Assembly: GCF_000619845.1 (NCBI RefSeq)
Contig: NZ_KK211037.1
Coordinates: 90,001-122,000, forward strand
Origin: Alkanindiges illinoisensis DSM 15370
GTDB taxonomy: Bacteria; Pseudomonadota; Gammaproteobacteria; Pseudomonadales; Moraxellaceae
DNA length: 32,000 nt
Direction: 5' to 3'
Positions 1,673 to 29,562 of the stretch are shown piece after piece. Numbering within the stretch: position 1 is the stretch's first letter; each line of letters begins with the position of its first letter. A program made the translations under genes and the position numbers. A model generated the notes under the pieces. The model was not told the origin of the DNA. It saw only the letters and a list, made by a program, of their open reading frames with translations, and searched no databases.

Positions 1673-2356
1673 CTATAAATCACGATTGGCCATGTGGCGT
1701 GAACCGGCAATGATCATGTGAATCATGTCCACGGTCTGGGTCAGGATGCGGTTCTGGCTGTCGCTATCTTGTTCCATGGCATTGGCACCCATGGCAAACA
1801 CCAGCCGGGTAATGGCCTTGGCCACCAGCTCGGGCGCATACAACTGGTTGCCATGCAATTGTTCCAGCCGTACCAAATCTTCTTTAAGCTCAGTTTCAAA
1901 AAAGCAGAGCTGCTGTTCCACGGCCTGCTTGAAGGCTGCCGAGCCAACTTTTCCCTCACGCAATAACAGCGGCAGGTTGCCTTGTTCTAGCCGCAACTGT
2001 TCCATGAATACTTCCATGGAGCTTTGCACCACGCTGCGCTCACGCGAAGCACGTTGCCGTGCTGTGCCAATAATGCTGCGTAAGGCACTGCCAGCCTGTT
2101 CAATCAGGGCAATGGCCAGTTCATCAATATCCCGAAAATGCCGGTAAAAACTGTTGGGCGCAATGCCTGCTTCCCGTGCCACTTCGCGCAGGCTTAGGGT
2201 CGATACGCTGCGATGCGGACCTAGCAGTTTTAAGGCCGCCTCAATGATTTCTGCCCGGCTGATCGTCACCCGCCGCCCTTGTGGAGCACGGTTTTCCAGA
2301 TCAGCACCAGTAGTTGCAGCAGCAGGCAATGGCATAAATGACGGGTTATTTAACAA
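1673..2356 (-). CDS. fabR: TetR-family repressor, FabR/DesT-like (unsaturated fatty-acid regulator)
   Basis: The HTH region [37 protein letters not shown]...ARQR is near-identical in pattern to E. coli FabR ([37 protein letters not shown]...ARQR, recalled). It is divergent from a reductase-desaturase operon. The start is uncertain: TTG at 2356 or ATG at 2335. Confidence 0.8.
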   Translation of the reverse strand: [227 protein letters not shown]

Positions 2357-2392
2357 GACGGTTTCATTATAAAGACAAAAAACCGGAAAAGA

Positions 2393-2424
2393 TAATATAC
2401 AAGTGTCTATACATCTGTATAATA
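2393..2424 (+). promoter_or_regulatory. candidate FabR/DesT operator overlapping a TATAAT -10 for the reductase-desaturase operon
   Basis: ATATACAAGTGTCTATACATCTGTATAAT lies in the divergent intergenic region. It shares the TACAAGTGT core with the boxes at 20289-20363. It contains the near-palindrome TATACA-TC-TGTATA and a TATAAT hexamer about 35 nt upstream of the ATG at 2458. Confidence 0.45.
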
Positions 2425-2457
2425 ACTAGCCTGCATTCAATTGATCAAGGTTTTGCC

Positions 2458-3645
2458 ATGCTTAACAGCCAGCCTGCTTCACCAGATATCTTGCCGTCAA
2501 GTTCCGGTGACTCAAGGGCCGGGTTAGCGCTATGGCAACGCTTGCGTGGCTTTGCTGATATTGCCATGGATCCTAATGTGGTGAATTTCTGGGTCAGCAA
2601 GCTTAATCCATTGTGGTCGCTGGATCAGCCCATGGCCAGAATTGTGGGTCGTGAGGAAGCTGCCAGTAAGAGTGTGACATTGATCCTAAAACCCAACCGT
2701 CATGTGGTGATACCGCAGGCTGGCCAGCATATTAGTGTAGCTACCGAAATTAATGGGGTGCGTGTTGCACGCAGTTATAGTACCAGTCTGGTGCCTGAGC
2801 AGCCCGGCTTGCTGGCCATTACTGTCAAGCAGGTAGAAGGCGGACGCTTGAGTAACTGGCTATGCTTGCAAGCGCGTGAAGGCGATGTGTTGTATCTGGG
2901 CCAGCCGTTTGGCGATTTTCAATGGCCTGCATTACAACAGCCTGTATTACTGCTGGCAGCGGGCAGCGGCATTACCCCCATGATTAGCCTGCTGCGCCAA
3001 TATGCCCGGCAAGCGGCCAAAGGCGGGCTATTTCCCAGCAAACAGACCGTACAACTGCATTACTGGGTGCGCCGCCGTGAAGAAGCCTGCTTTATTGAGG
3101 AATTACTGGCCCTGCCCAAAATTCAGCCCAATTTTTCCCTGCATTTGTATTTGACCCAGCAAGATCATACCCAGCAAGAGCCAACCCAATCGTATGAGCG
3201 TAGTGGCCGGATTGAGGCCAGCCAGTTTGCCCAGCAGGAAGACCTGAAAAATAGCCATGTGCTGGCTTGTGGCCCGGCAGGGTTTGTTCGTAGCGCGCAG
3301 GAAATCCTGCAAGCCCAGGTGGCGTCGTTTCAGGCCGAAGCCTTTTCGCCGCCGCAAATCTCTACGGATGCGGAGGCCACAGGTTGCAGCACCGTACAAA
3401 TTACCCTGCAACAGCAACAACGCATTTTAACCGTGCCTGTCGGCCAATCCATTCTGGCCGCGCTGGAAGCAGAAGGCATCAATCATCCCAGCGGTTGTCG
3501 TATGGGTCTGTGCAACACCTGTGCCTGCCATAAGGTTTCTGGCAGCACCCAGCACCTGATTTCTGGTGAATCCCAGCATGATGAAAATCCGGCCTTGCGC
3601 GTGTGTGTGAGTAGGGCAAGCAGTGATCTGGTACTGGACATTTAA
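2458..3645 (+). CDS. ferredoxin-NAD(P)H reductase-type oxidoreductase (FAD/NAD-binding domain plus C-terminal plant-type 2Fe-2S); electron donor for the adjacent desaturase (DesC-like)
   Basis: Motifs present are RSYS (FAD binding), GSGITPM (NAD binding) and C-terminal CRMGLCNTCAC (2Fe-2S). The tracked ORF starts at 2338, but that extension would overlap the divergent TetR gene start and run across the intergenic promoter/operator region. ATG 2458 (MLNSQP...) is the likely start. Confidence 0.85.
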   Translation: MLNSQPASPDILPSSSGDSRAGLALWQRLRGFADIAMDPNVVNFWVSKLNPLWSLDQPMARIVGREEAASKSVTLILKPNRHVVIPQAGQHISVATEINGVRVARSYSTSLVPEQPGLLAITVKQVEGGRLSNWLCLQAREGDVLYLGQPFGDFQWPALQQPVLLLAAGSGITPMISLLRQYARQAAKGGLFPSKQTVQLHYWVRRREEACFIEELLALPKIQPNFSLHLYLTQQDHTQQEPTQSYERSGRIEASQFAQQEDLKNSHVLACGPAGFVRSAQEILQAQVASFQAEAFSPPQISTDAEATGCSTVQITLQQQQRILTVPVGQSILAALEAEGINHPSGCRMGLCNTCACHKVSGSTQHLISGESQHDENPALRVCVSRASSDLVLDI

Positions 3646-3713
3646 GCTATTGCTGTACCTTGGCCAAAAAGATTGCAACACATTAAACCGAATAGAAAAG
3701 AGGACACCGTGCC

Positions 3714-4838
3714 ATGTTATTAAAAAAGCCCAAGTTCAAGTTACCTAAGGGCCAAAAGAGCCGTTCTTTAAATGCAGCCGAGCTGGACATGCTGGCAGCG
3801 GAACTGGATGTCTTGCGCGCGCAAACTCTGACTGATCTGGGCGAGGGCGATGCCAAATATATCCGCAAGATTGTGGCTTCTGTGCGTTATACCGCCATGG
3901 CCGGGCGTGGCTTGTTATTTCTGGGCTGGTTTCCACCGGCATGGCTGGCTGGCACCACCCTGCTGGGTATTGCCAAGATTCTGGAAAATATGGAATTGGC
4001 GCATAACGTGATGCATGGTCAGTATGACTGGATGAATGATCCGGCCTTGCAGGGCAAAAGCTACGAGTGGGATACCGTGGGCACCAGCGACAACTGGCGT
4101 AAAACCCATAATTTCAAGCATCACACCTATACCAATGTCAAAGGCATGGATGACGATGTGGGCTATGGCTTGCTGCGTATTTTTCCCGAGCAGCGCTGGC
4201 ACCCGTTTTATCTGGGACAGCCACTGTATGCAATGACGCTGGCCATGCTGTTTCAGTGGGGCGTTGCGATTCAGGACCTTGAAATTGGTAAATACCTGCA
4301 AGGCCGCATGAGCAAGCAGGAGTTTATGGCGCGCTGGCAGCCCACCCGGCAAAAGATTACCCGACAACTGTTGAAGGACTATGTCTTTTTTCCAGTAATT
4401 GCTGGGCCGTCATTTTTACCGGTATTTCTGGGTAACCTCGCGGCCAATGGCATGCGTAACCTGTGGACATTCAGTATTATTTTTTGTGGTCACTTTACTG
4501 AAGATGCAGAGATTTTCCCTAAGTCCGTGCTGGAAAATGAAAGCCGGGGTCACTGGTATTATCGCCAGATTCGTGGCTCAAGCAATTTAAGCGGCGGCAA
4601 ACTGCTGCATTTGCTGTCCGGTAATTTAAGCCACCAGATTGAGCATCACCTGTTTCCGGACATTCCGGCACATCGTTATGCTGAGCTTGCGCCTAAAGTT
4701 CAGGAAATTTGTGAGCGCTATGGCATTCATTACAATACCGGCAGCTTTCGCAAGCAGTTTGGTCAGGTGCTGTGGCGGATTGTGCGACACAGCTTGCCCA
4801 GCCAGCCGAAAATGGCACAGGTGGTGAAGGCGGTTTAA
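3714..4838 (+). CDS. membrane fatty-acid desaturase (acyl-CoA/acyl-lipid delta-9 type, DesB-like)
   Basis: 374 aa with three histidine boxes (HNVMHG, HNFKHHTYTN, HQIEHHLFP) and hydrophobic segments. It lies immediately downstream of its reductase. Confidence 0.9.
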   Translation: MLLKKPKFKLPKGQKSRSLNAAELDMLAAELDVLRAQTLTDLGEGDAKYIRKIVASVRYTAMAGRGLLFLGWFPPAWLAGTTLLGIAKILENMELAHNVMHGQYDWMNDPALQGKSYEWDTVGTSDNWRKTHNFKHHTYTNVKGMDDDVGYGLLRIFPEQRWHPFYLGQPLYAMTLAMLFQWGVAIQDLEIGKYLQGRMSKQEFMARWQPTRQKITRQLLKDYVFFPVIAGPSFLPVFLGNLAANGMRNLWTFSIIFCGHFTEDAEIFPKSVLENESRGHWYYRQIRGSSNLSGGKLLHLLSGNLSHQIEHHLFPDIPAHRYAELAPKVQEICERYGIHYNTGSFRKQFGQVLWRIVRHSLPSQPKMAQVVKAV

Positions 4839-9984: not shown

Positions 9985-10022
9985 ATAAAGAAGGATGCGT
10001 ATGCGCCCTTCTTTATGATTTT
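9985..10022 (+). terminator. hairpin / probable terminator closing the guaA-repeat region
   Basis: 10-bp stem ATAAAGAAGG / CCTTCTTTAT enclosing an inner GCG/CGC helix, followed by GATTTTA (weak U-tract). Confidence 0.5.
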
Positions 10023-10076
10023 AGAGTATTGGGTAGCTGAGCTTATTTTCAGCTCTTATTAGATAGAAGAGCTCAG

Positions 10077-10712
10077 ATGATTGATATTTCTAATATAAAT
10101 TACAATTTGTTGGCCGCAGTTTATAAGATTACAGCAAATAACCTTCAAATTTTTTCAGCAGAGGGATGGAAAAGTCAATTCCGTAGTGAATTACTACTTG
10201 CCTCTGATCAATTGCAACTTGGCTTCTGGAGTGATGTTGATTTAATAGTCATATCGCAAGAGAATTATCTTTTTGCTTATCAAGCTTTTGCTCGTTCACA
10301 GGCTCTTATTTTATCTATGAAAGCTGTAGAGGATTTATCGGCATGGAAATACATGGGCTTAGAGTGGTCTGAGTCTTATGACACGCATGTTCTAAAAGAA
10401 GCAAGCTCTTTAATTACTAAACATTTTGAAAGAGTTAATAAATTTCCTTATAAGCGTGATAGTTGGATAAAGATAATTAATATTCTTATAGATAAAAACA
10501 GAGGTTTTAATATTCAGTCAATTTGGGGAGAACGTTTATATTATAATGCTGAAGATCAGTTTTTTTATAATTCAAAGGCAATTAAAATGCCTTGGTATGA
10601 TATTGAATATATGGAATTAAGTTTAGATGCTTTAACAGATAAAGAGTTAAAAGAAATTGATCTGGAAGTTATTATTCCAAGTTATGCAGTACATCTCCGA
10701 ACTCAAAATTGA
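10077..10712 (+). CDS. hypothetical protein (AT-rich orphan, no family recognised)
   Basis: A 211-aa ORF with no competing ORF on the other strand. It is visibly much more AT-rich than the neighbouring genes. I see no signal peptide or TM segment. Confidence 0.6.
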   Translation: MIDISNINYNLLAAVYKITANNLQIFSAEGWKSQFRSELLLASDQLQLGFWSDVDLIVISQENYLFAYQAFARSQALILSMKAVEDLSAWKYMGLEWSESYDTHVLKEASSLITKHFERVNKFPYKRDSWIKIINILIDKNRGFNIQSIWGERLYYNAEDQFFYNSKAIKMPWYDIEYMELSLDALTDKELKEIDLEVIIPSYAVHLRTQN

Positions 10713-10751
10713 ACATTTATCTATTAGCCAGCGTATTAAGCTTTGTTAAAC

Positions 10752-10949
10752 CTACTTGTGTAATGATTTATCACATACCCGACATTCCAATATCATCCCA
10801 AGCATCTTTGCACGCCCTTCAGCAGTGATCACCCACGGACGATTTTGCCACGGTGGATTATGCCGAACATGCTGCTGATGCCCACAGGCTAGTTCTACCA
10901 CCCAATGGAGTTCGTCATCCTGATGAAAACCGGTAATTGCTTGTTGCAT
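10752..10949 (-). CDS. DUF3565 domain-containing protein
   Basis: ITGFHQDDELHWVVELACGHQQHVRHNPPWQNRPWV matches the DUF3565 signature as recalled. AAGGA lies 5 nt upstream of ATG 10949 (the tracked ORF extends to 11003). Confidence 0.75.
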   Translation of the reverse strand: MQQAITGFHQDDELHWVVELACGHQQHVRHNPPWQNRPWVITAEGRAKMLGMILECRVCDKSLHK

Positions 10950-11011
10950 CCTATTCCTTTTATTTATGTGATATAAAATAAACATCCCATTATAAAACTT
11001 CACTAATTGTC

Positions 11012-19561: not shown

Positions 19562-20218
19562 TCAGGACTTGTCGCCAGCTTCACTATTCCAGTTGGAAAT
19601 GCCACGGAACATCAGTTGCGCCTGCTTGGTGGTGTTTTGAATCAGTTGTTCACGCTGTTCTGCTAACGTGGCTGGGTTATTTTTTTCTGGCAAATTCAGC
19701 CAGGTCATGGCCCAGGAAAACGACATATTAATCAAAATCGACGACATGATCTGCAAGTCCTGCGTGGCACCAACATGCTCAAAGGCAGGCAGTTTTTTCA
19801 GGTCTTCAGCCAGATCATCCACAAAAAAATGAATTTCACGCGCAATGGCATCACGCACGACCGATGAGCCACCCCAGCGCTCGCCAATCAGGAATAGCCA
19901 GTGCCGTGCGGACTGGTCAACGGCAGTAAAAAACCGTTCAATACTGAGCCGGGTTTTGGAACCTGCCTTAACGGTATATCCCTCACGCAGGCTGCGCAAC
20001 AGATGATGCAGGCTAATCGACACCTGATCCACCAGATCATTGCCCAGCTCATCCATATCCTGAAAATGCCGGTAAAACGCGGTGGGAACAAGGCCAGCCT
20101 CACGCGCCACTTCGCGCAGACTGATCGTGCTAAAGGAACGTCCAGAGGTGCTTAAGGTCAGGGCCGCTTCCAGCAGGGCTTGACGGCTTTGTTGCTTGCG
20201 TTCGTCTCTGATCGACAT
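19562..20218 (-). CDS. TetR-family repressor, second FabR/DesT-like paralog
   Basis: [37 protein letters not shown] shows the same FabR-type HTH pattern as the 1673-2356 gene. It is divergent from a second reductase-desaturase operon. Confidence 0.8.
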   Translation of the reverse strand: [218 protein letters not shown]

Positions 20219-20286
20219 TCAGACAGACCAAAAAAACTGATGAGGCAACAAGTTTAACAAAAAAAATAAACTTCTTTATAAAAATT

Positions 20287-20365
20287 CAGTGTACAGGTGT
20301 TGACTCAAATCTAAAAAACGCTATATTAGTGTACAAGTGTTCACAATACTAACAAGTGTTCACTA
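20287..20365 (+). promoter_or_regulatory. sigma70-like promoter overlapped by three FabR-type operator boxes
   Basis: The boxes are GTGTACAGGTGTTGAC (20289-20304), GTGTACAAGTGTTCAC (20329-20344) and ACTAACAAGTGTTCAC (20348-20363). TTGACT (20300-20305), a 16-nt spacer and TATATT (20322-20327) sit inside or between the boxes. The box resembles the E. coli FabR site core GCGTACACGTGTTAGC as I recall it. Confidence 0.55.
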
Positions 20366-20437
20366 ACGTAGCAAACTGCCAAATACGTGAATACATCCAG
20401 AACACCAACATCAGAAGATAAGCAAGAGGGCCGCATC

Positions 20438-21463
20438 ATGTTACAGACCAGCAATTACAAGCCACACTGGATTCGCGAAGACTTTGTTGATTTTGTACTG
20501 GCCAAGGTGAATCCGATGTGGACCCTGCGTCGTACCATGGCACGCATTGAAAGCATTGAACCGATTGCTGATGGCATGATCAAGCTGACCTTGCGTACCA
20601 ATAACAAATTTAATCAGTACCAGCCCGGCCAGTTTGTCATGGTAACTGTGCGGATTGACGGAGTGCAGCATCAACGTGCCTATAGTCTGGTGAGCCATCC
20701 TGGCGATTCAACCATTGTGCTGGGGATTAAAAAGCAGGGCCGTGTGTCCAACTATCTGGCCAATGATGCGCGTGCGGGTGATGTGCTGGAAATTACCCCT
20801 GCCATGGGTGAATTTACCTTAAAAAAACATGATCATCCGGTGTTGCTGATTTCTGCGGGCAGTGGCATTACTCCCATGATTCCATTGGCGAGACAAGCGC
20901 TTGAACGCTCTAAACTGCCGGTTACCCTGATTTATTATTCCCGTGATCCGGCATTCCGTGCCGAGCTGGAAGCACTGGCGGCCAAGCATTCCCATTTCAA
21001 TTTGCACATTATTGTGGACAGTGCCGACAAGCCAGCCTTTTTTGATGAAGACACGCTGGATCAGCTGTGTGTTGATGCCAAATACCGCGAAACCTATGTC
21101 TGTGCCGCACCCGGCCTGATGAAAGCCACCCGCCAGATCTGGCAAAAACGTGGCTGGAGTGCGCAACTGACTCAGGAAAGCTTTTTACCCGTTACCGTGA
21201 GTGATGATGCACAAGCGGTTCCGGTGAATTTCCGCCGCAGCATGCAGGAATTTGAGGGCCGTGGCAACCTGCTGGCCAGTGCCGAAGCAGCAGGTTTAAA
21301 ACCATCATTTGGCTGCCGCATGGGCATTTGCAATACCTGCGTGTGTACCAAAGTCAGTGGTGCCGTAAAGAATCAGCTGACTGGCGAAATTAATGACCAG
21401 AACAATGTGCAAATTAAGTTATGTGTGAGCGAAGCGGTCAGCCCTGTTGAAATTGACCTGTAA
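20438..21463 (+). CDS. ferredoxin-NAD(P)H reductase-type oxidoreductase with C-terminal 2Fe-2S (paralog of 2458-3645)
   Basis: Contains RAYS, GSGITPM and CRMGICNTCVC motifs. ATG 20438 is preceded by AGAGGG; the tracked GTG 20387 start is less likely. Confidence 0.85.
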   Translation: MLQTSNYKPHWIREDFVDFVLAKVNPMWTLRRTMARIESIEPIADGMIKLTLRTNNKFNQYQPGQFVMVTVRIDGVQHQRAYSLVSHPGDSTIVLGIKKQGRVSNYLANDARAGDVLEITPAMGEFTLKKHDHPVLLISAGSGITPMIPLARQALERSKLPVTLIYYSRDPAFRAELEALAAKHSHFNLHIIVDSADKPAFFDEDTLDQLCVDAKYRETYVCAAPGLMKATRQIWQKRGWSAQLTQESFLPVTVSDDAQAVPVNFRRSMQEFEGRGNLLASAEAAGLKPSFGCRMGICNTCVCTKVSGAVKNQLTGEINDQNNVQIKLCVSEAVSPVEIDL

Positions 21464-21506
21464 GCCAGCCCTTTAAAACGCAAACCAATATATTGAGTAA
21501 AAGATC

Positions 21507-22670
21507 ATGAATAGCATTAATTATGACGCTGTAAAAGCCGCAAAAAGCAAAAGCCGTGCATTAAGCTTTGATGAGATTCAGGAATTTGGCCGTAAGATCG
21601 ATGCCATTCGTGCCGAGACCATGGCCAAGATTGGCAAGGAAGATTCCGACTATATCTACAAGGTGCGTAACTTTGTACGCTACACCGAAATTGCCTCACG
21701 CGGCATGCTGATGTTTGGTGGCTGGATTCCACCGGTCTGGTTGCTGGGTACAGCCATGCTGGGTGTGTCTAAAATTGTTGAAAATATGGAACTGGGTCAT
21801 AACGTGATGCACGGCCAGTTTGACTGGCTCAATGATCCCACCTTAAACGGTGCCAACTATGACTGGGATACCGTGTGTACTGGTGAAGATTGGAAATACA
21901 CTCATAATTATATGCACCACACTTATACCAATGTACTGGGCAAGGATCATGATATTGGTTATGGCGTGATGCGCATGACCCGTGAGCAGGAATGGGAGCC
22001 GCGTTTCCTGTTTAATGTGCCCATGGGTATTTTCTTATCAACCGGTTTTGAATGGTTACTAGCCTTGCAACGTCTGGAACTGGAACAGGTGCTGTTTAAG
22101 GGTACTAAAACCTGGAAAGAAGTGTATGTACAATCTAAAAACCTGCGCAAAAAAATGTTGCGTCAGTTTGGCAAGGATTATGTATTGTTCCCGCTGATTG
22201 CTGGACCCATGTTCCTGCCGGTCATTGCAGGTAATTTTGTCGCCAACCTGATTCGTAATTACTGGGCATCTGCGGTGATTTACTGTGGACACTTCACTGA
22301 AGATGCCGAAATGCTTGAAGATAATACCGCCAATGAAACCAAGGCCGAATGGTATTTGCGCCAGATTCGTGGCTCAAGCAACTTTACCGGCGGCAAGATC
22401 ATTCACTTCATGAGCGGTAACTTAAGCCACCAGATTGAACACCATCTGTTCCCGGATGTGCCTGCCAACCGTTATCAGGAAATGGCACCTAAAGTCCGTG
22501 CCGTGTGTGAAGAGTATGGCCAGAACTACAACTCAGCCAGCTTTGCCAAGCAGTTTGCCAGCGTGTGGGTACGTTTGGCTGAGCATTCACTGCCTGACCA
22601 GATGGTTGATAAAATCAAGGCTACTCGTGCCAAGCTGTCACTGAAGAACCTGTTTGCCCGCGCTGCTTAA
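21507..22670 (+). CDS. membrane fatty-acid desaturase (paralog of 3714-4838)
   Basis: 387 aa with His boxes HNVMHG, HNYMHHTYTN and HQIEHHLFP. Long blocks are shared with the first desaturase (ENMEL.HNVMHGQ.DW.NDP, YCGHFTEDAE, RQIRGSSN..GGK..H..SGNLSHQIEHHLFPD.PA.RY). Confidence 0.9.
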   Translation: MNSINYDAVKAAKSKSRALSFDEIQEFGRKIDAIRAETMAKIGKEDSDYIYKVRNFVRYTEIASRGMLMFGGWIPPVWLLGTAMLGVSKIVENMELGHNVMHGQFDWLNDPTLNGANYDWDTVCTGEDWKYTHNYMHHTYTNVLGKDHDIGYGVMRMTREQEWEPRFLFNVPMGIFLSTGFEWLLALQRLELEQVLFKGTKTWKEVYVQSKNLRKKMLRQFGKDYVLFPLIAGPMFLPVIAGNFVANLIRNYWASAVIYCGHFTEDAEMLEDNTANETKAEWYLRQIRGSSNFTGGKIIHFMSGNLSHQIEHHLFPDVPANRYQEMAPKVRAVCEEYGQNYNSASFAKQFASVWVRLAEHSLPDQMVDKIKATRAKLSLKNLFARAA

Positions 22671-22991: not shown

Positions 22992-23708
22992 ATGCGCTTT
23001 GACCAACGCAGTAACGATCAATTAAGACCTGTAACGTTTACCCGTCAATATACACGTTATGCTGAAGGCGCTGTGCTGGTTGAGTTTGGCAACACCAAGG
23101 TGCTGTGTACGGCCAGTGTAGAAAGCAGCGTTCCACGTTTCCTAAAAGGTACTGGCCAAGGCTGGATTACTGCCGAATACGGCATGTTGCCGCGCTCTAC
23201 CCATACCCGCAATGACCGGGAAGCTGCGCGTGGCAAGCAATCTGGCCGCACACAGGAAATTCAGCGCCTGATTGGCCGTAGCCTGCGCGCGATGGTTGAC
23301 CTCAAAAAACTGGGTGAAAATACCATTACCATTGATTGTGATGTATTGCAGGCTGATGGCGGCACCCGTACAGCAGCCATTACGGGTGGCGCGGTAGCAC
23401 TGGTTGATGCATTGACTGCATTGCAGGCACAAAAAAAACTGAAAAGTGACCCGCTAAAAGGTCTGGTGGCAGCGATTTCTGTGGGCATGTATCAGGGTGA
23501 AGCCTTGCTGGACTTGTGCTACGAAGAAGATTCCAAGTGTGAAACCGATCTAAACGTGGTGATGACCCAATCTGGTGAATTTATTGAATTGCAGGGCACT
23601 GCCGAGAGCAAGCCCTTTAACCGCGCGCAATGCAACCAGATGCTGGAACTGGCTGAAAAAGGAATTGCCGAGCTGATTCTGGCGCAGCAAAAAGCACTGG
23701 GCTGGTAA
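22992..23708 (+). CDS. rph: ribonuclease PH
   Basis: 238 aa. MR.D.R...QLRPV.F.R.Y...[18 protein letters not shown]...[46 protein letters not shown] is the canonical RNase PH sequence. Confidence 0.95.
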
Positions 23709-25223: not shown

Positions 25224-25856
25224 TTAAGCAGTTGCTTTCACATGCTGCAAGAACTGCTGGGTTGGGGTTTGAAAATAAATATCAAAACTGGCACTCACTG
25301 TTTGATCTGCCTGACTGAATTTTTTAAAAATGGTCGTGAGCGGCGCAATATAAGTATTCATCCACTCACTTGTAGAGCGACATTGCTGCGGATTGCGTAA
25401 ACTTTGCTGCAAATGTATAAGCTCCTGATAAATTGGGCTGATGTCCTCATTAAATACGAATAATTCCATGGTCATCGGGTCGATTGCATTGACCACAATA
25501 TCTTCTGCAAATCTGCCCACCGTCTTTAGGCGAATGCCTGAACCAGTAAAACAAGAATAAAGCAGCCGGGTTTTTTCAAGTTGTGCATGCTCACCAATCT
25601 CCAGACGCCTTGCATCACAGGCATCACGCAATAATGCAGGTAATTGCTGAGGATTATTACTTTGTTGAAAAGATTTAAAAATTCGTTCAAGTGTAAGGCT
25701 TTCACCCGTACCAGTTATTATGCCCTGCTGCCAGAAACGGATTTTTTGTAAGGTATCGGCATGGCGACTCTCAGCCAAACTGTTTTCAATTGTCATGCGA
25801 TTGTCGGCAGCCACTACTACACTGTCTTCAAGCTGGATTGCAATAATAAAAGTCAT
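25224..25856 (-). CDS. hypothetical protein with proteasome-beta/HslV-like (Ntn-hydrolase) N-terminal signature
   Basis: A 210-aa ORF whose sequence from residue 2 is TFIIAIQLEDSVVVAADNRMTIEN...LQKIRFW..GIITGTGESLTLERIFKSF...FTGSG. It aligns by eye to Thermoplasma beta ([24 protein letters not shown]...KKLFQI) and HslV ([21 protein letters not shown]...KKVRRL...[20 protein letters not shown]...IGSGG). Confidence 0.55.
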   Translation of the reverse strand: MTFIIAIQLEDSVVVAADNRMTIENSLAESRHADTLQKIRFWQQGIITGTGESLTLERIFKSFQQSNNPQQLPALLRDACDARRLEIGEHAQLEKTRLLYSCFTGSGIRLKTVGRFAEDIVVNAIDPMTMELFVFNEDISPIYQELIHLQQSLRNPQQCRSTSEWMNTYIAPLTTIFKKFSQADQTVSASFDIYFQTPTQQFLQHVKATA

Positions 25857-25885
25857 TTGGTAAAAATTCAGAGTTTGGTTAGAAT
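25857..25885 (+). promoter_or_regulatory. candidate sigma70 promoter for the VgrG-tail/toxin/immunity operon
   Basis: TTGGTA (25857-25862), a 17-nt spacer and TAGAAT (25880-25885), about 50 nt upstream of ATG 25934. Confidence 0.35.
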
Positions 25886-25933
25886 GCGAACTAATTTGAA
25901 TAATGCATCATAATTAAAGATAAGGCCAATAAG

Positions 25934-26377
25934 ATGAATCAACAGCCAGCCTTCAATAGTTTGGAGATTGCCACGCCTGTATTAAGTGCAGGCGGCTCAC
26001 AAGTCAAAATCAGTGCTAAAGGCATTGAAGTGATTACTGGCGGCAAGTTTGAAGCCAAAGCCGGGCAGCATCAGTTTTTGGGCGGGGAGAAAATTGATAT
26101 TAGCGTACCAGTATTACCGAAATTTCAGAATAAAAACTGGATTGCTCTGGAGCATCTGGATGCAGATAACCGGCCATTTGCTAATCTGGGCTATAAAATA
26201 TTCTTTGAAAATAATCAGACGATAGAGGGCAAACTTGATCAGCAAGGTAAGGCTTATCATGAAAATGTGCCGGAGCAAGCCATAAAAGTAGAATATGAGG
26301 AAAATACCACAATTAAAGATGAGCCTTGGGATACTTATGATTCTGTACTGGCTCAACTGAATAAGTTTGAAAAATAA
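25934..26377 (+). CDS. stand-alone VgrG C-terminal fragment-like protein with small beta-rich tail domain
   Basis: Residues about 15-63 (VLSAGGSQVKISAKGIEVITGGKFEAKAGQHQFLGGEKIDISVPVLP) read like the last repeat of the VgrG beta-helix/DUF2345 region (compare GGAYLKLEGGNIEL..PG.F.VKA..H.F.GP). The tail contains GYKIFFENNQTIEGKLDQQGKAY, a motif typical of cargo-binding extensions. An in-frame stop at 25901 shows there is no longer vgrG reading frame upstream. Confidence 0.65.
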   Translation: MNQQPAFNSLEIATPVLSAGGSQVKISAKGIEVITGGKFEAKAGQHQFLGGEKIDISVPVLPKFQNKNWIALEHLDADNRPFANLGYKIFFENNQTIEGKLDQQGKAYHENVPEQAIKVEYEENTTIKDEPWDTYDSVLAQLNKFEK

Positions 26378-26401
26378 AATGATTAGTAAAGTGATTACAA
26401 A

Positions 26402-27946
26402 ATGACAGATTTTTTACCCTCAAAGAAAGACTTATTAAATGCATTAGCTTCTATTGCCGCACCTGTTAATAAAGCAATTCAAAAAGGTCAGGAAACGCTT
26501 GAGGATATTGCTGAATGGTTATGGGTAGTTATTCAGGGAGATTTTGCCGAGGAACAAAGCACTGCACAAATTGCCACAGGGACAGTTATTTCAATGATTC
26601 CCTTTGTGGATCAGATCTGTGATGTACGTGATCTTTGTGCGAATTGCATGAAAATTAAGGAAGATATTAATAATCCTTGGGTATGGGTTGGTTTAATCCT
26701 CACCTTAATTGGTTTATTTCCTGTTTTGGGTTCACTGTTTAAAGGCATTTTTAAAGTCATTCTGGCACCTGTGCGCCGTTTTATGCTGCGGCCTGCTACC
26801 AAAGCGCTTCAGTTTACAGGGGGCAATATTTATAAAATGGCTGAACCCGCCATTGAAAGCGGAATTACCGAGCTAAATAAATTTCTAGCCCGTCCAGCTG
26901 TTAAAAAAGCTATTAAAAGTAAAGGCATTACGAATATTTATAAATCCATTGCAACTAAAATTCGTGAAGTAAAAGCAGTTATTTCTACAAAAGAGTTGCT
27001 AAGTGTTTTTGACAAATTACTGGGTTATCTTAAGGAAACCGTTAATTTTATAGATAAATATGCCAGTCGCGGGGTGGGGATTAAAGCAAAAAATATGCTG
27101 AAAGACGTGGTTGAGATAAGAAATCTAGCCAATCAAAAGCTGGGTACATTTTTAAAACCAATACAAGATTTTTTAGAAAAGCTGGCAATCAGAATAGATA
27201 GGGAAAGTGATCAGGCTTTTAAAGCAACGACGAACGTGAGGAATTTGACGCAGTTTAGAAGAGTTTCCGAAGCCGAAGAGTTAGCAGCATTTAGAAAGAA
27301 TAAACCAAATTGGGTATATAAAAAGGTGAAAGGACGTACGTTACCTTTTGAACCCGCAAAAGTAAATCCTAAAACAGCAGTGACACCTTTTCATCCTGAT
27401 CTTAGTGATACGCAGCCTGCTTTAAAAAGCGGTTATGAGCATCCTTTAAAAAGCAAGTACAACACCTTTGCTGAAGGTTTAATTAAGGATAGAGTGTTTC
27501 ACGAAGGTGAAGTTTTGGTAAGAGTTGTAGCACCAGGAAATTTAGATAACAGTATTTGCTGGATGAGAAAATCCGAGTTTTTAAAATTAAAAAGTCGTGA
27601 AGAATGGCGTGATAAATTTGCGGTTTGGGCGAAGTGGAACACGAATGGTGAGTACCTTGAATACACGGTACCTAAAGGAAAAAAGCTTTATGCATGGGAA
27701 GGCCCCGCTGCCTCTCAGCAAGAGGCTGAATTTTATTTAAGAGGTGGTGGCATACAAATTGTTTTAGACCCAGATGACCTTATTTCATCGGGCTTAAGTA
27801 AACGTAAATTAACCGGTTGGGGCTATGGTACAGACTCGTCGATTGGTGAATTCTCCGTGGTTGGTGTGCCTACATTACAGACCAATCTAGGAGATTATAG
27901 TTTGGCTCCGCGCTTAGAGCATAAACCTCAGACTACAGGACATTAA
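26402..27946 (+). CDS. putative T6SS-associated effector/toxin of unassigned family (N-terminal conserved motif plus TM segment, Lys-rich helical middle, C-terminal toxin-like domain)
   Basis: 514 aa. The N-terminal region reads WLWVVIQGDFAEEQSTAQIATGTVISMIPFVDQICDVRDLCAN and is followed by the hydrophobic WVWVGLILTLIGLFPVLGSLFKGIFKVIL (about aa 93-120). The C-terminal domain (about aa 355-470) contains GEVLVRVV...WAKWN...YLEYTVPKGKKLYAWEGPAASQ...GGGIQIVLDPDDL. Its position after a VgrG-like gene and before a tightly coupled small gene supports the call. Confidence 0.55.
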   Translation: MTDFLPSKKDLLNALASIAAPVNKAIQKGQETLEDIAEWLWVVIQGDFAEEQSTAQIATGTVISMIPFVDQICDVRDLCANCMKIKEDINNPWVWVGLILTLIGLFPVLGSLFKGIFKVILAPVRRFMLRPATKALQFTGGNIYKMAEPAIESGITELNKFLARPAVKKAIKSKGITNIYKSIATKIREVKAVISTKELLSVFDKLLGYLKETVNFIDKYASRGVGIKAKNMLKDVVEIRNLANQKLGTFLKPIQDFLEKLAIRIDRESDQAFKATTNVRNLTQFRRVSEAEELAAFRKNKPNWVYKKVKGRTLPFEPAKVNPKTAVTPFHPDLSDTQPALKSGYEHPLKSKYNTFAEGLIKDRVFHEGEVLVRVVAPGNLDNSICWMRKSEFLKLKSREEWRDKFAVWAKWNTNGEYLEYTVPKGKKLYAWEGPAASQQEAEFYLRGGGIQIVLDPDDLISSGLSKRKLTGWGYGTDSSIGEFSVVGVPTLQTNLGDYSLAPRLEHKPQTTGH

Positions 27947-27951
27947 AAACA

Positions 27952-28905
27952 ATGAAAAATTATAGCATTAACCCGAAAGAAGCCTATTTATTAGAGCAGT
28001 TTAGTTCCCTACAGTTTTTTGAAACCATGCGAAATAACTATCATCTTTTTTTAGATGGTTTGGAAGAGTTATTTGAAATTTATATGCATAACTTACCTTA
28101 TAATTTACGAGATTTACCATTACCAGAACAGGCTGATATTAACTGGGGTGGGACTGTCTTGCCGAATTTGCGCGGTACTATGGATCGGATTAATTATGCG
28201 TATGCCAAAATCAAAGCAGGCGATTTTACTTATTTAGATTGTGTTGGAGAGATTCGTTCCAATGATAAAGGTTTAAGTGAGTTTTCTCCGCACTGGATGG
28301 ATGATTTACCCACAGATAAGGTTTGGCAAACTTTTGATTATTATTCGAAAGCAAAGCAGTATGCTTCGATTATTGAATATACATATCCCACATCTTGGAA
28401 GAAAGACTTCCTTGCTAAAGAATTCCCCAGTTTAAGTCTATTTAGTAATATTGATATAGAGTTGCCAGCCTCCTATCCAATTTATCGCATTAATCCTGAG
28501 ATAAAAATTAAAACAGGAGAAAAAGTAGTTCAAAAAGGTATATATATCTGTGAAGAATTAGACATGGGCTTAACATTTATTGCATTTAGTCCGGAGAAAG
28601 ATAATGGTTTAGCACCTGAATACACTCGTCGAAATTCTGAGACGGGTGAAAATATGTACTTTGAAACTATGTGGACTTTGGTTGAACGAATTGCCGATGA
28701 AGGGGGATCTACTGAAACTATTCAGGCTGAAAACTTAAAAGGTTTTGGCGGAGAGATTTGCCCATACTCAGGCCAGTGGTGGAGTCCTGCTAATCAATCA
28801 GAAAAACGTTATTTTGAGCAAGGTGATACTTTTCCTAAACTGAAAAACAATTTCTGGGGTAAAACCATTTGGTATCTGGAAGTGACCAATCAGATTAAAG
28901 ATTAA
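27952..28905 (+). CDS. putative cognate immunity protein (cytoplasmic; C-terminus reminiscent of Imm72-type domains)
   Basis: The start is 5 nt after the upstream stop. There is no signal peptide or TM segment. The C-terminal GEICPYSGQWWSPANQSEKRYFEQGDTFPKLKNNFWGKTIWYLE has the conserved Cys/Trp/GxxxW pattern I associate with polymorphic-toxin immunity domains. This is from recall and is unverified. Confidence 0.5.
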   Translation: MKNYSINPKEAYLLEQFSSLQFFETMRNNYHLFLDGLEELFEIYMHNLPYNLRDLPLPEQADINWGGTVLPNLRGTMDRINYAYAKIKAGDFTYLDCVGEIRSNDKGLSEFSPHWMDDLPTDKVWQTFDYYSKAKQYASIIEYTYPTSWKKDFLAKEFPSLSLFSNIDIELPASYPIYRINPEIKIKTGEKVVQKGIYICEELDMGLTFIAFSPEKDNGLAPEYTRRNSETGENMYFETMWTLVERIADEGGSTETIQAENLKGFGGEICPYSGQWWSPANQSEKRYFEQGDTFPKLKNNFWGKTIWYLEVTNQIKD

Positions 28906-28950
28906 AGAGCAGAATATCCAACTATCTCAAAAACTAATAAAAGGAATATC

Positions 28951-29562
28951 ATGACCAATATCGCATTGTTTGATTTTGATGGCACCATCACGCAGAGCGA
29001 TACATTTACACCGTTTATTTATACAGTGGTCAATCCCAAGCGACTCAGATGGGGCAAGCTAGTATTATTGCCTTATATCTTGGGATACAAACTGGGACTT
29101 TTATCAGGTTCAGTAATCAGGTCAAAAATCTTTAAATTTGGATTTCAGGGAGCTGATGCTGCGCTGTTACGCAAAGCCGGCCTTGAGTATAGCCAGAATG
29201 ATCTGCCACAAGTGCTTCGCCCGAATGCTATGCAGCAGATTAACTGGCACTTGGCGCAAGGCGATAAAATTGTAGTGGTTTCTGCGTCAATGGATGTGTA
29301 TTTAAAGCCTTGGTGTAAATTACATGGGCTGGATTTGATTTGCAGCGAAATAGAAGAAAACCACGGTATGTTGACAGGGATGTATAAGCATCAAGATTGT
29401 AGTGGCATCATCAAGAAAAACAGAATACTTGAAAAATATGACCTCTCTGATTTTGAAGAGGTCTATGTTTATGGCGATACCATTGAGGACAGGGAAATGC
29501 TGTCACTGGGCAGCAAACGGTTTTATCAATGGCAAGAAGTAGGCAATGATTTTTTTGTCTGA
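28951..29562 (+). CDS. HAD-IB family hydrolase/phosphatase
   Basis: Contains FDFDGTIT (motif I), VVVSAS (motif II) and YGDTIEDREML (motif IV), with a cap insertion typical of subfamily IB. AAGGA RBS. Confidence 0.8.
   Translation: MTNIALFDFDGTITQSDTFTPFIYTVVNPKRLRWGKLVLLPYILGYKLGLLSGSVIRSKIFKFGFQGADAALLRKAGLEYSQNDLPQVLRPNAMQQINWHLAQGDKIVVVSASMDVYLKPWCKLHGLDLICSEIEENHGMLTGMYKHQDCSGIIKKNRILEKYDLSDFEEVYVYGDTIEDREMLSLGSKRFYQWQEVGNDFFV

Follow-up and report, generated by a model that had tools for sequence, protein, structure and literature searches.

Positions 25224–28935 of a 32,000-nucleotide stretch of the genome of Alkanindiges illinoisensis DSM 15370 (contig NZ_KK211037.1, positions 90,001 to 122,000; the whole stretch is referred to here as the window) probably encode a type VI secretion system (T6SS) cargo module, built on a conserved platform of two genes. 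One is a minigene, the first open reading frame of the module (ORF1), whose product corresponds to the C-terminal end of a VgrG spike protein; the other is a divergent gene for a 210-aa protein which looks like an N-terminal nucleophile (Ntn)/proteasome-type enzyme. Downstream of the minigene lie ORF2, a candidate effector gene, and ORF3, a candidate immunity gene, which appear to form an uncharacterised effector–immunity pair of an unnamed, widespread family. Judged by sequence comparison, two features of this arrangement are new: the tail of ORF1, the effector and the immunity gene form a swappable cassette at a conserved site, and the mini-VgrG and its divergent Ntn/proteasome-like partner form a conserved platform of which no description was found. 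Coordinates are collected in Table 1.

The three ORFs are co-directional and separated by gaps of 24 and 5 nt, with coordinates as the initial annotation had placed them. It had also read ORF1 as the last rung of a VgrG spike followed by a beta-rich cargo-binding tail, and this is borne out by alignments with VgrG C-termini and by a profile match to VgrG1 of enteroaggregative Escherichia coli (EAEC). Residues 16–51 of ORF1 match the last 36 positions (115–150 of 151) of Pfam DUF2345 (PF10106; E 8e-7), with a score of 29.4 bits that falls just short of the gathering threshold of 30.7 bits. Residues 8–147 align colinearly, with no gaps of note, to residues 794–936 of the 941-residue VgrG of Acinetobacter vivianii (60% identity), and 41% identity is found with residues 785–903 of the 917-residue VgrG of Ralstonia pseudosolanacearum; both of these VgrGs are encoded directly upstream of ORF2 homologues. 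A profile of ORF1 and VgrG tails yielded one significant match among solved structures, to residues 719–836 of 841 in EAEC VgrG1 (6SJL/6SK0; E 0.0076), a region which we take to span the end of the beta-helix and the transthyretin (TTR)-like domain that holds the effector Tle1. The C-terminal tail of ORF1 has homologues in the effector-specific tails of genuine VgrGs. ORF1 has neither the gp27-like (Phage_GPD) nor the gp5 OB-fold (Phage_base_V) domain of a full-length VgrG, and upstream of it there are 77 nt before a divergent gene begins; its full-length relatives (917–954 aa) have all VgrG domains. Hydropathy analysis found no strongly hydrophobic stretch in ORF1. These comparisons identify ORF1 as a 5′-truncated but maintained vgrG, which keeps the last beta-helix strands and an effector-specific TTR-like tail.

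Between lineages that share the truncated state, the dN/dS of ORF1 is 0.12–0.21, with head and tail both constrained (0.15–0.22 for the N-terminal part); the corresponding values are 0.135 for ORF2, 0.149 for ORF3 and 0.10 for the neighbouring GSDH gene. By this measure the mini-VgrG is under purifying selection, maintained and not decaying. The promoter-like element TTGGTA-17-TAGAAT proposed in the initial annotation is present, although the hexamer match is not significant by itself: 5 promoter-like sites were observed in the region, against 13.1 expected from shuffled sequence. The element counts because the leader is conserved across loci, not because of the hexamer match. In six Alkanindiges-type loci with coding DNA that differs by 8–22%, hardly any change is seen in the 77-nt leader, which holds both hexamers, AAGG and the ATG; it is more conserved than the surrounding coding DNA. 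An Rfam scan for structured RNA in the leader gave no match.

The link between ORF2 and VgrG comes from its homologues. Clustered at 90% identity, the relatives of ORF2 number more than 600; they come from Acinetobacter, Psychrobacter, Ralstonia, Cupriavidus and Luteimonas, among others, are all labelled ‘hypothetical’ and carry no Pfam domain. A genome scan seeded by ORF1 recovered ten Acinetobacter loci with an ORF1-type tail, and in all ten, homologues of ORF2 and ORF3 stand behind the tail, which ends an intact VgrG of 937–951 aa in eight loci; in the remaining two the contig ends within the vgrG. An ORF2 homologue also directly follows a full-length VgrG in A. vivianii and in a metagenome-assembled genome (MAG). 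In Ralstonia the vgrG/effector/immunity trio lies inside a T6SS core cluster, beside VipA/VipB, SciN, VasE and DotU. Through these homologues ORF2 has the hallmarks of a T6SS cargo effector, encoded directly 3′ of vgrG and co-inherited with its tail; in the window, the vgrG concerned is the truncated minigene. This distribution places ORF2 in an effector family co-inherited with the ORF1-type tail.

The three ORFs recognised by the initial annotation stand as a set, but a constant divergent partner, the 210-aa gene, had been overlooked. Its product is 33–38% identical (E 2e-39) to a 214–240 aa Acinetobacter protein which is encoded beside minigenes. Across 11 sequences from two genera (32–38% identity), M1, T2, D18, K38, G49/G51, S101, D184 and S188 are invariant. 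The family thereby conserves the residues expected of an Ntn hydrolase, with Thr2 in the nucleophile position and partners of the Asp17/Lys33 type (D18, K38). Profile matches of the 210-aa protein are weak: Pfam Proteasome (E 0.009; 16.1 bits, below the 22.4-bit cut-off), the NCBIfam archaeal proteasome beta subunit (E 6e-4) and the Connectase N-domain (E 0.06–0.13). Weak Proteasome matches recur in 3 of 11 family members and weak Connectase_N matches in 2 of 11, a PDB search reached proteasome beta6 at E 0.3, and one NCBI record names a member ‘Ntn hydrolase family protein’. The partner looks like an Ntn/proteasome-type enzyme.

The association of this gene with minigenes is close. At nine Acinetobacter genome loci, an Ntn-like gene lies 60–100 nt upstream of, and divergent from, a minigene starting M-AGGSQIIINK. 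Acinetobacter genome minigenes are accompanied by an intact Ntn-like gene at 9 of 11 loci and by remnants of one at the remaining two (L029, L030), whereas none of 16 full-length vgrG loci (one frameshifted vgrG counted) has such a gene. A metagenome scan seeded on the 210-aa family, not on VgrG, returned 50 loci, 49 of which had enough upstream sequence; at all 49 a divergent mini-VgrG was found 60–96 nt from the Ntn-like gene, with at least 10 tail types. The truncated architecture with intact ORFs is present at more than 60 loci, in two genera and on a plasmid. What had been called an ‘orphan’ minigene is not a one-off, being instead part of a conserved platform under selection. The plasmid is pB18-6, a 14-kb RepM plasmid of Acinetobacter indicus (NZ_CP044461.1, 2294–5398; L107), which carries the Ntn-like gene, a 235-aa mini-VgrG annotated as ‘type IV secretion protein Rhs’ and two cargo ORFs; its presence there indicates that the platform is mobile. 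Two further Acinetobacter plasmids (H12, H13) carry an Ntn-like gene. In Acinetobacter brisouii GCA_000964015.1 (JZRE01000009.1, 38633–51355; L106), an intact Ntn-like gene is found with a 156-aa mini-VgrG, a 470-aa GH19 effector and two small ORFs. Elsewhere the cassettes carry Ntox15 with Tdi1-like immunity, GH19, LysM and DUF2515, and DUF4123 adaptors occur after short-tail minigenes of 66 aa; by these annotations, the cargo of minigene loci is the standard T6SS repertoire. In the literature searched, no link between an Ntn/proteasome-like gene and VgrG was found, and an arrangement of a mini-VgrG with a protease-like gene was not described. A paper on an ‘orphan VgrG’ of Acinetobacter nosocomialis (PMC11253628) was considered and set aside, as it does not concern minigenes.

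It is conceivable that the two genes are neighbours only by inherited synteny, and that the Ntn-like protein has an unrelated cellular job. Both genera belong to the Moraxellaceae, so an adjacent pair could have come down from a common ancestor, and the Ntn assignment is itself weak. The outer neighbours of the pair nevertheless vary between species and genera, the pair occurs on a 14-kb plasmid, and a scan seeded on the Ntn-like gene alone found the minigene at every testable locus. Synteny also accounts poorly for the two minigene loci with only Ntn-like remnants, and for the MAG lineage of L007, L008 and L011, which combines a split Ntn-like gene with a broken effector. This explanation is unlikely on balance, though far from negligible.

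Comparison of relatives at one chromosomal site, bordered on the one hand by RNase PH, GSDH and the 210-aa gene and on the other by HAD and nadC, points to exchange of the DNA between the minigene head and HAD. The same cassette is present in A. hydrocarboniclasticus H1 (L010; ~83% DNA identity) and on metagenome contigs (L003–L006; L003 and L004 at ~83%, L003 with a second immunity gene). In the MAG lineage of L007, L008 and L011 the minigene is retained, the effector is broken, and the C-half and immunity gene are of the other subtype. In A. illinoisensis NFYY 23406 (L024) and in a MAG (L009), the flanks are 92–94% identical to those of the window, and window positions 26092 to about 28932 are swapped for unrelated DNA: a different tail with 222-aa and 158-aa ORFs in the former, and a different tail with 283-, 174- and 158-aa ORFs in the latter. 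On the left, the 92% identity to L009 and L024 stops at 26091, which puts the breakpoint at codon 52/53 of ORF1, where the DUF2345 segment ends; homology restarts at the ribosome-binding site of the HAD gene. No repeats or att-like sites were seen at the right junction. Minigenes with the common head MNQQ...AGGSQ...KFEAKAGQHQFLGG bear at least four unrelated tails. According to the alignments, the tail is exchanged together with the effector and immunity genes as a single cassette, whose junctions are the end of the conserved beta-helix and a point just before the next housekeeping gene. The proposal that the module was horizontally acquired is supported because the cassette has been replaced wholesale in sister genomes. 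A second A. illinoisensis minigene (P0137), at first a candidate for a second locus, was rejected as such; it is L024, the same site with a different cassette.

Several further traces of damage were seen at related loci. In the L007/L008/L011 lineage (MAG Moraxellaceae SECL01000037.1 and a Logan contig), the Ntn-like gene consists of pieces of 84–90 and 119 aa and the effector is broken (147 + 363 aa) or not called, with the 147-aa minigene intact; partner gene and effector appear to have decayed together. At L022 (MAG Proteobacteria JAEWKT010000049.1, 13294–16988), a full-length VgrG/effector/immunity trio is followed by two fragments, one for 105 aa of a toxin C-terminus and one for 154 aa of an effector N-terminus, by a spare immunity gene (323 aa) and by transposase-like ORFs, a typical graveyard of successive effector displacement. 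The HAD-IB gene, which is intact (203 aa) in the window, L024 and L007, lies in two short ORFs in L003 (11950–12446), L009 (10617–11228) and L010 (12987–13223), damage which may be collateral of cassette exchange at that junction.

These exchanges raise the question of whether the minigene product has any role at all, for the beta-helix segment could be a homology arm by which tail, effector and immunity genes are swapped into a full-length vgrG elsewhere, the locus being a recombination reservoir. Such a model is in keeping with a left breakpoint exactly where the conserved DUF2345 segment ends, with the unrelated tails borne by identical N-terminal parts and with the tails common to minigenes and full-length VgrGs of other species. 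Orphan modules, however, normally lack a start codon and promoter, both of which are conserved here, and purifying selection acts on the protein sequence of the N-terminal part. Moreover, the N-terminal parts of the minigenes form a sequence type of their own, IIINKxGIxIITPxKFE, unlike the full-length VgrGs of the same genus (IKLNGSGIFPTTGGKFE), and a reservoir leaves the constant Ntn-like partner unexplained. A reservoir without a functional product is accordingly considered improbable.

The AlphaFold2 model of ORF2 places an N-terminal domain, a long helical linker and a compact alpha/beta C-terminal domain in that order. The conserved N-terminal motif and hydrophobic segment reported initially are both present: residues ~31–124 are the most conserved part of the family, with ~30 invariant residues (WxWxxxxGDF...SMxPxVDQxxDxRD...), and the single strongly hydrophobic stretch found by hydropathy, at aa 91–124, is modelled as a helix pair. 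The N-domain is 42% identical over 95 aa to the N-terminal region of an Ntox15 DNase effector of Acinetobacter kanungonis, and because the same domain heads that effector it behaves as a delivery module.

The C-terminal domain, which the initial annotation could not place in a named toxin family, can be given a possible Tse6/TNT-like placement. It is modelled with a predicted local distance difference test (pLDDT) score of ~80–96. With the ORF2 model as query, Foldseek returned the Tse6 toxin chains 4zv4_C, 4zv4_D and 4zv0_A (probability 0.96–0.99, template-modelling score on the target 0.39–0.50, E 0.1) and nothing else above a probability of 0.3; the E-value is as weak as 0.1 because the query was the whole 514-aa model. 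A C-domain profile recovered 476 proteins of many lengths at E<=1e-3. Among 93 diverse relatives there are fusions to PAAR (PAAR_motif), DUF4280, Hcp (T6SS_HCP), PT-TG and DUF6861, as well as Ntox3-containing proteins; the same domain is thus found on different delivery modules, as in polymorphic toxins. Pfam TNT (PF14021) was matched by one of the 93 distant relatives (E 4e-4) and by two of 38 domain-only sequences (E ~0.09), and neither TNT nor Ntox46 by ORF2 and 22 close homologues. R374, W387, W402, R403, G449 and Q452, and only these, are invariant across the distant relatives, and the resulting R...WR...GGxxQ pattern resembles what we take to be the catalytic set of TNT, R757/R780/Q822. 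Sequence searches for the identity of the toxin, with full-length ORF2, the C-domain profile and the 38-sequence profile against the PDB and Pfam, gave chance-level matches only (tau, adseverin, geosmin synthase) and were discarded. The C-domain is predicted to be a Tse6/TNT-like NAD(P)+ glycohydrolase which would act in the target cytoplasm, the case for that activity being evenly balanced. Terminator-like hairpins lie within the toxin-domain coding region (window 27710–27729); they are probably due to chance because fewer were found than expected from shuffles.

The toxicity of ORF2 might instead reside in its hydrophobic N-domain, making it a pore-forming or depolarising toxin whose C-domain is no NADase. 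The helix pair at aa 91–124 is strongly hydrophobic, no part of the protein is more conserved than the domain containing it, and the enzymatic assignment derives from weak scores. A membrane-disrupting toxin is hard to reconcile, however, with the occurrence of the same N-domain at the head of a DNase effector, with a C-domain which travels alone on PAAR, DUF4280 and Hcp carriers in the manner of toxin domains, and with an immunity protein which is soluble, cytoplasmic and co-varies with the C-domain. The chances of this alternative are slim.

ORF3 was proposed as a cytoplasmic immunity protein because it lacks an export signal and starts 5 nt after ORF2, the typical effector–immunity arrangement. 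Neither a signal peptide nor a transmembrane segment was detected, and hydropathy found no strongly hydrophobic stretch. The arrangement recurs in relatives: homologues of ORF3 directly follow the effector in one to three tandem copies (three in A. vivianii), and their type tracks that of the toxin domain. Where the toxin domain is 76–80% identical to that of ORF2, the adjacent immunity gene is 66–75% identical to ORF3. For toxin domains at 47–51%, the adjacent gene is at 39–44% in L011, L016 and L021, and in L012, L013 and L018 the reported immunity copy lies further downstream, at 42–69%. Toxin type and immunity type thus co-vary in part, as far as these sequences indicate. With its position directly downstream of the effector, the tandem arrays among its homologues and this co-variation, ORF3 has the features expected of an immunity gene, and sequence comparison places it in a protein family that follows the effector.

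The AlphaFold2 model of ORF3 (pLDDT 86) comprises a helical bundle and a beta domain, for which no significant fold match was found in the PDB; generic helical bundles (a pectin methylesterase inhibitor at probability 0.97 but E 0.12) and Cas12 noise were dismissed. The last ~55 residues (aa 257–310) match positions 229–280 of 282 of the NCBIfam family immunity_TaeI (NF041834; E 1.2e-9), but ORF3 is not a TaeI member, since it scores 38.1 bits against a family cut-off of 450 bits. The idea that this shared C-terminal module recognises the shared effector N-domain was dropped: the Ntox15 effector of A. kanungonis has an immunity protein which consists of GAD-like plus Tdi1_C domains and is unlike ORF3. 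Four ORF3 homologues (P0160, P0168, P0176 and P0178) have 453–518 aa, 140–200 residues beyond the usual 305–320 aa, and could be fusions or have mis-called starts.

That the locus is merely a decaying relic, an ancestral vgrG island which lost its 5′ 2.4 kb and in which ORF1 is a meaningless leftover and ORF2–ORF3 persist through a useful immunity gene or addiction, would agree with the lack of a full-length vgrG or T6SS gene among the scanned window ORFs, with the joint breakage of effector and Ntn-like gene in L007, L008 and L011 and with the view of Lewis et al. 2019 that short vgrG genes are non-functional, but it is very improbable given dN/dS values for ORF1 which resemble those of housekeeping neighbours, the conservation of its start codon, ribosome-binding site and promoter-like element, the abundance of intact truncated loci in two genera and on a plasmid, and the exchange of cassettes while the truncated 5′ part was retained.

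A T6SS cargo module on a two-gene platform remains the favoured interpretation, and several points weigh against it. A free VgrG tail is expected to compete with effector loading and not to promote it. All components are known from sequence and models alone. The NADase assignment is weak, given a Foldseek E-value of 0.1 and the absence of a Pfam or PDB sequence match for ORF2 itself, and so is the Ntn assignment, in which every score falls below curated cut-offs. In Alkanindiges the genome scan gave minigenes only and no full-length vgrG, and support for a T6SS in the host amounts to one genus-level sentence (PMC6838775). The same source lists A. brisouii among Acinetobacter without a T6SS main cluster; for that reason the intact module in this species would be a relic or independent of the T6SS.

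According to the mechanism proposed for the T6SS cargo module, the tail of ORF1 would bind ORF2, as the TTR domain of EAEC VgrG1 binds Tle1. The conserved hydrophobic N-terminal domain of ORF2 would serve in loading and in crossing the inner membrane of the target, where the Tse6/TNT-like C-terminal domain would then hydrolyse NAD(P)+ in the cytoplasm; in the producer, ORF3 would bind and block the toxin domain. The Ntn/proteasome-like partner is the obvious candidate for the step which brings a spike-less tail to the T6SS. The tail might be a trans-acting adaptor which caps or joins a resident spike, or the mini-VgrG might be a substrate of the Ntn-like enzyme, by processing or by connectase-like grafting onto a full-length VgrG; alternatively the minigene could be a recombination reservoir, or have a T6SS-independent role. 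The adaptor and enzyme–substrate options agree best with the conservation of expression signals, with the selection and with the constancy of the partner. In its most specific form, post-translational tail-grafting, a connectase-like transpeptidase would cut a resident full-length VgrG at ...AGGSQ... and ligate the segment encoded by the minigene. Acinetobacter minigenes begin exactly M-AGGSQ, at the conserved AGGSQ, and if grafting were true, one spike body could be re-equipped with plasmid- or cassette-borne, effector-specific tails; it is nonetheless a long shot. In a weaker version, the enzyme would process or mature the mini-VgrG to cap the spike as a stackable adaptor.

The module shares features with several known systems. 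As in EAEC VgrG1–Tle1 (PDB 6SJL/6SK0), a profile of ORF1 aligns to the last beta-helix strands and the TTR-like domain, and the effector gene lies directly downstream; ORF1, in contrast, is a separately transcribed protein of 147 aa without the gp27/gp5 spike body, and ORF2 is unrelated to Tle1. For the ORF2 toxin domain, Foldseek gave no high-probability match other than Tse6 of the Pseudomonas aeruginosa Tse6–Tsi6 pair, at E 0.1, and relatives of the domain match Mycobacterium tuberculosis TNT weakly; with Tse6, ORF2 has in common N-terminal hydrophobic helices and a cytoplasmic immunity protein. ORF2 differs in lacking a sequence-level match to Tse6 or TNT, a PAAR domain and an Eag chaperone gene, its NADase activity is predicted only, and ORF3 (317 aa) has no sequence or fold match in the PDB. 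In Acinetobacter baumannii, TaeI is the immunity protein of the DNase TafE (Tde2-AB, Ntox15; PMC9973263), a VgrG-dependent cargo effector of ~530 aa, and the C-terminus of ORF3 matches that of TaeI. The toxin domain of ORF2 is a different one; it is the A. kanungonis effector, not ORF2, which has Ntox15 together with the shared N-domain. The closest literature entry to the ORF2 family may be Tse19-AB of A. baumannii, a predicted effector of 502 aa with no conserved domains and no assigned function (Lewis et al. 2019, PMC6833914). By description only, it is vgrG-linked and its size fits the 500–502 aa subtype of ORF2, an identity with the ORF2 family being unconfirmed; minigenes are not treated in that study.

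A short conserved carrier piece before a variable toxin/immunity unit is also found in orphan cdiA-CT/cdiI and rhs-CT modules and in the sequential effector displacement of Vibrio cholerae auxiliary clusters (PMC5361080). Exchange breakpoints at the boundary between conserved and variable sequence are likewise common to the orphan modules and the cassette, and L022 has orphan fragments broken by insertion sequences and spare immunity genes. The carrier fragment in ORF1, in contrast, has a promoter-like element and a start codon of its own, both conserved, and evolves under purifying selection, and the mini-VgrG stands at a fixed locus, away from any full-length carrier gene, with a constant enzyme-like partner. 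With the prokaryotic proteasome-beta homologues (HslV, BPH, Anbu, Connectase), the 210-aa protein shares a Thr directly after Met and the invariant Asp18 and Lys38, although all its scores lie below the family cut-offs. Fuchs et al. 2021 (PMC8665760), in surveying new proteasome homologues, described a gammaproteobacterial family, ‘GPH’, and gave no informative genomic context for the new families; identity of the 210-aa protein with GPH is unconfirmed.

Table 1. Coordinates of the platform, the cassette and adjacent features, in window positions.
Feature	Position	Strand	Basis or remark
Ntn/proteasome-beta-like gene, 210 aa, divergent from mini-VgrG	25224..25856	-	homology and weak profile matches
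Divergent intergenic region, 77 nt	25857..25933	.	promoter-like TTGGTA-17-TAGAAT at 25857-25885 and ORF1 ribosome-binding region
ORF1, mini-VgrG, 147 aa	25934..26377	+	last beta-helix strands and TTR-like effector-binding tail
ORF1 conserved platform part, codons 1-52	25934..26091	+	includes DUF2345 end (aa 16-51); left homology arm of cassette
Exchangeable cassette: ORF1 tail, ORF2, ORF3	26092..28935	+	unrelated DNA in its place in L009 and L024
ORF2, VgrG-linked cargo effector, 514 aa	26402..27946	+	family linkage to vgrG
ORF2 N-terminal conserved domain, aa 31-124	26492..26773	+	includes hydrophobic helix pair, aa 91-124
ORF2 C-terminal toxin domain, aa ~345-480, predicted Tse6/TNT-like	27434..27841	+	AlphaFold2 model, Foldseek, conserved residues
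ORF3, cytoplasmic immunity candidate, 317 aa	27952..28905	+	position, homologue arrays, no signal peptide or transmembrane segment
ORF3 C-terminal module, aa 257-310, common with TaeI immunity family	28720..28881	+	NCBIfam NF041834
HAD-IB hydrolase gene, right flank	28951..29562	+	sister-genome homology restarts from about 28932

The visibly AT-rich character of the segment, earlier judged by eye, is confirmed by computation: the cassette has a GC content of 37.3%, the remainder of the window one of 47.9%, and no stretch of its size elsewhere goes below 43.0%. A profile scan of 24 flanking ORFs, which left out a few (including 22992–23708 and two past 31100), found no T6SS core gene, PAAR protein or adaptor, in agreement with the first reading; the scanned ORFs encode GMP synthase, desaturases, the RNase PH context, GSDH, HAD, nadC and similar housekeeping genes. 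A second low-GC patch (34.3%), possibly a further small island of acquired DNA, lies at 10001–11000; its 211-aa ORF (10077–10712), flanked by GMP synthase and a luciferase-like monooxygenase, has no match in Pfam. Two paralogous three-gene sets, at 1673–4838 and 19562–22670, each encode a TetR regulator, an FAD/NAD/2Fe-2S oxidoreductase and a fatty-acid desaturase-family protein. They probably serve the oxidation of alkanes or fatty acids, which would be in keeping with a hydrocarbon-degrading host.

ORF2 is directly testable, because an NADase activity is predicted and the putative catalytic residues can be named. Minigene modules of this kind are missed by surveys of T6SS effectors because such surveys find loci through the full VgrG domain. 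If functional, the pairing of a minigene with a protease- or ligase-like gene would represent a novel means of attaching cargo to the spike or of swapping spike tips, and it would provide the first functional context for an orphan family of bacterial proteasome homologues.

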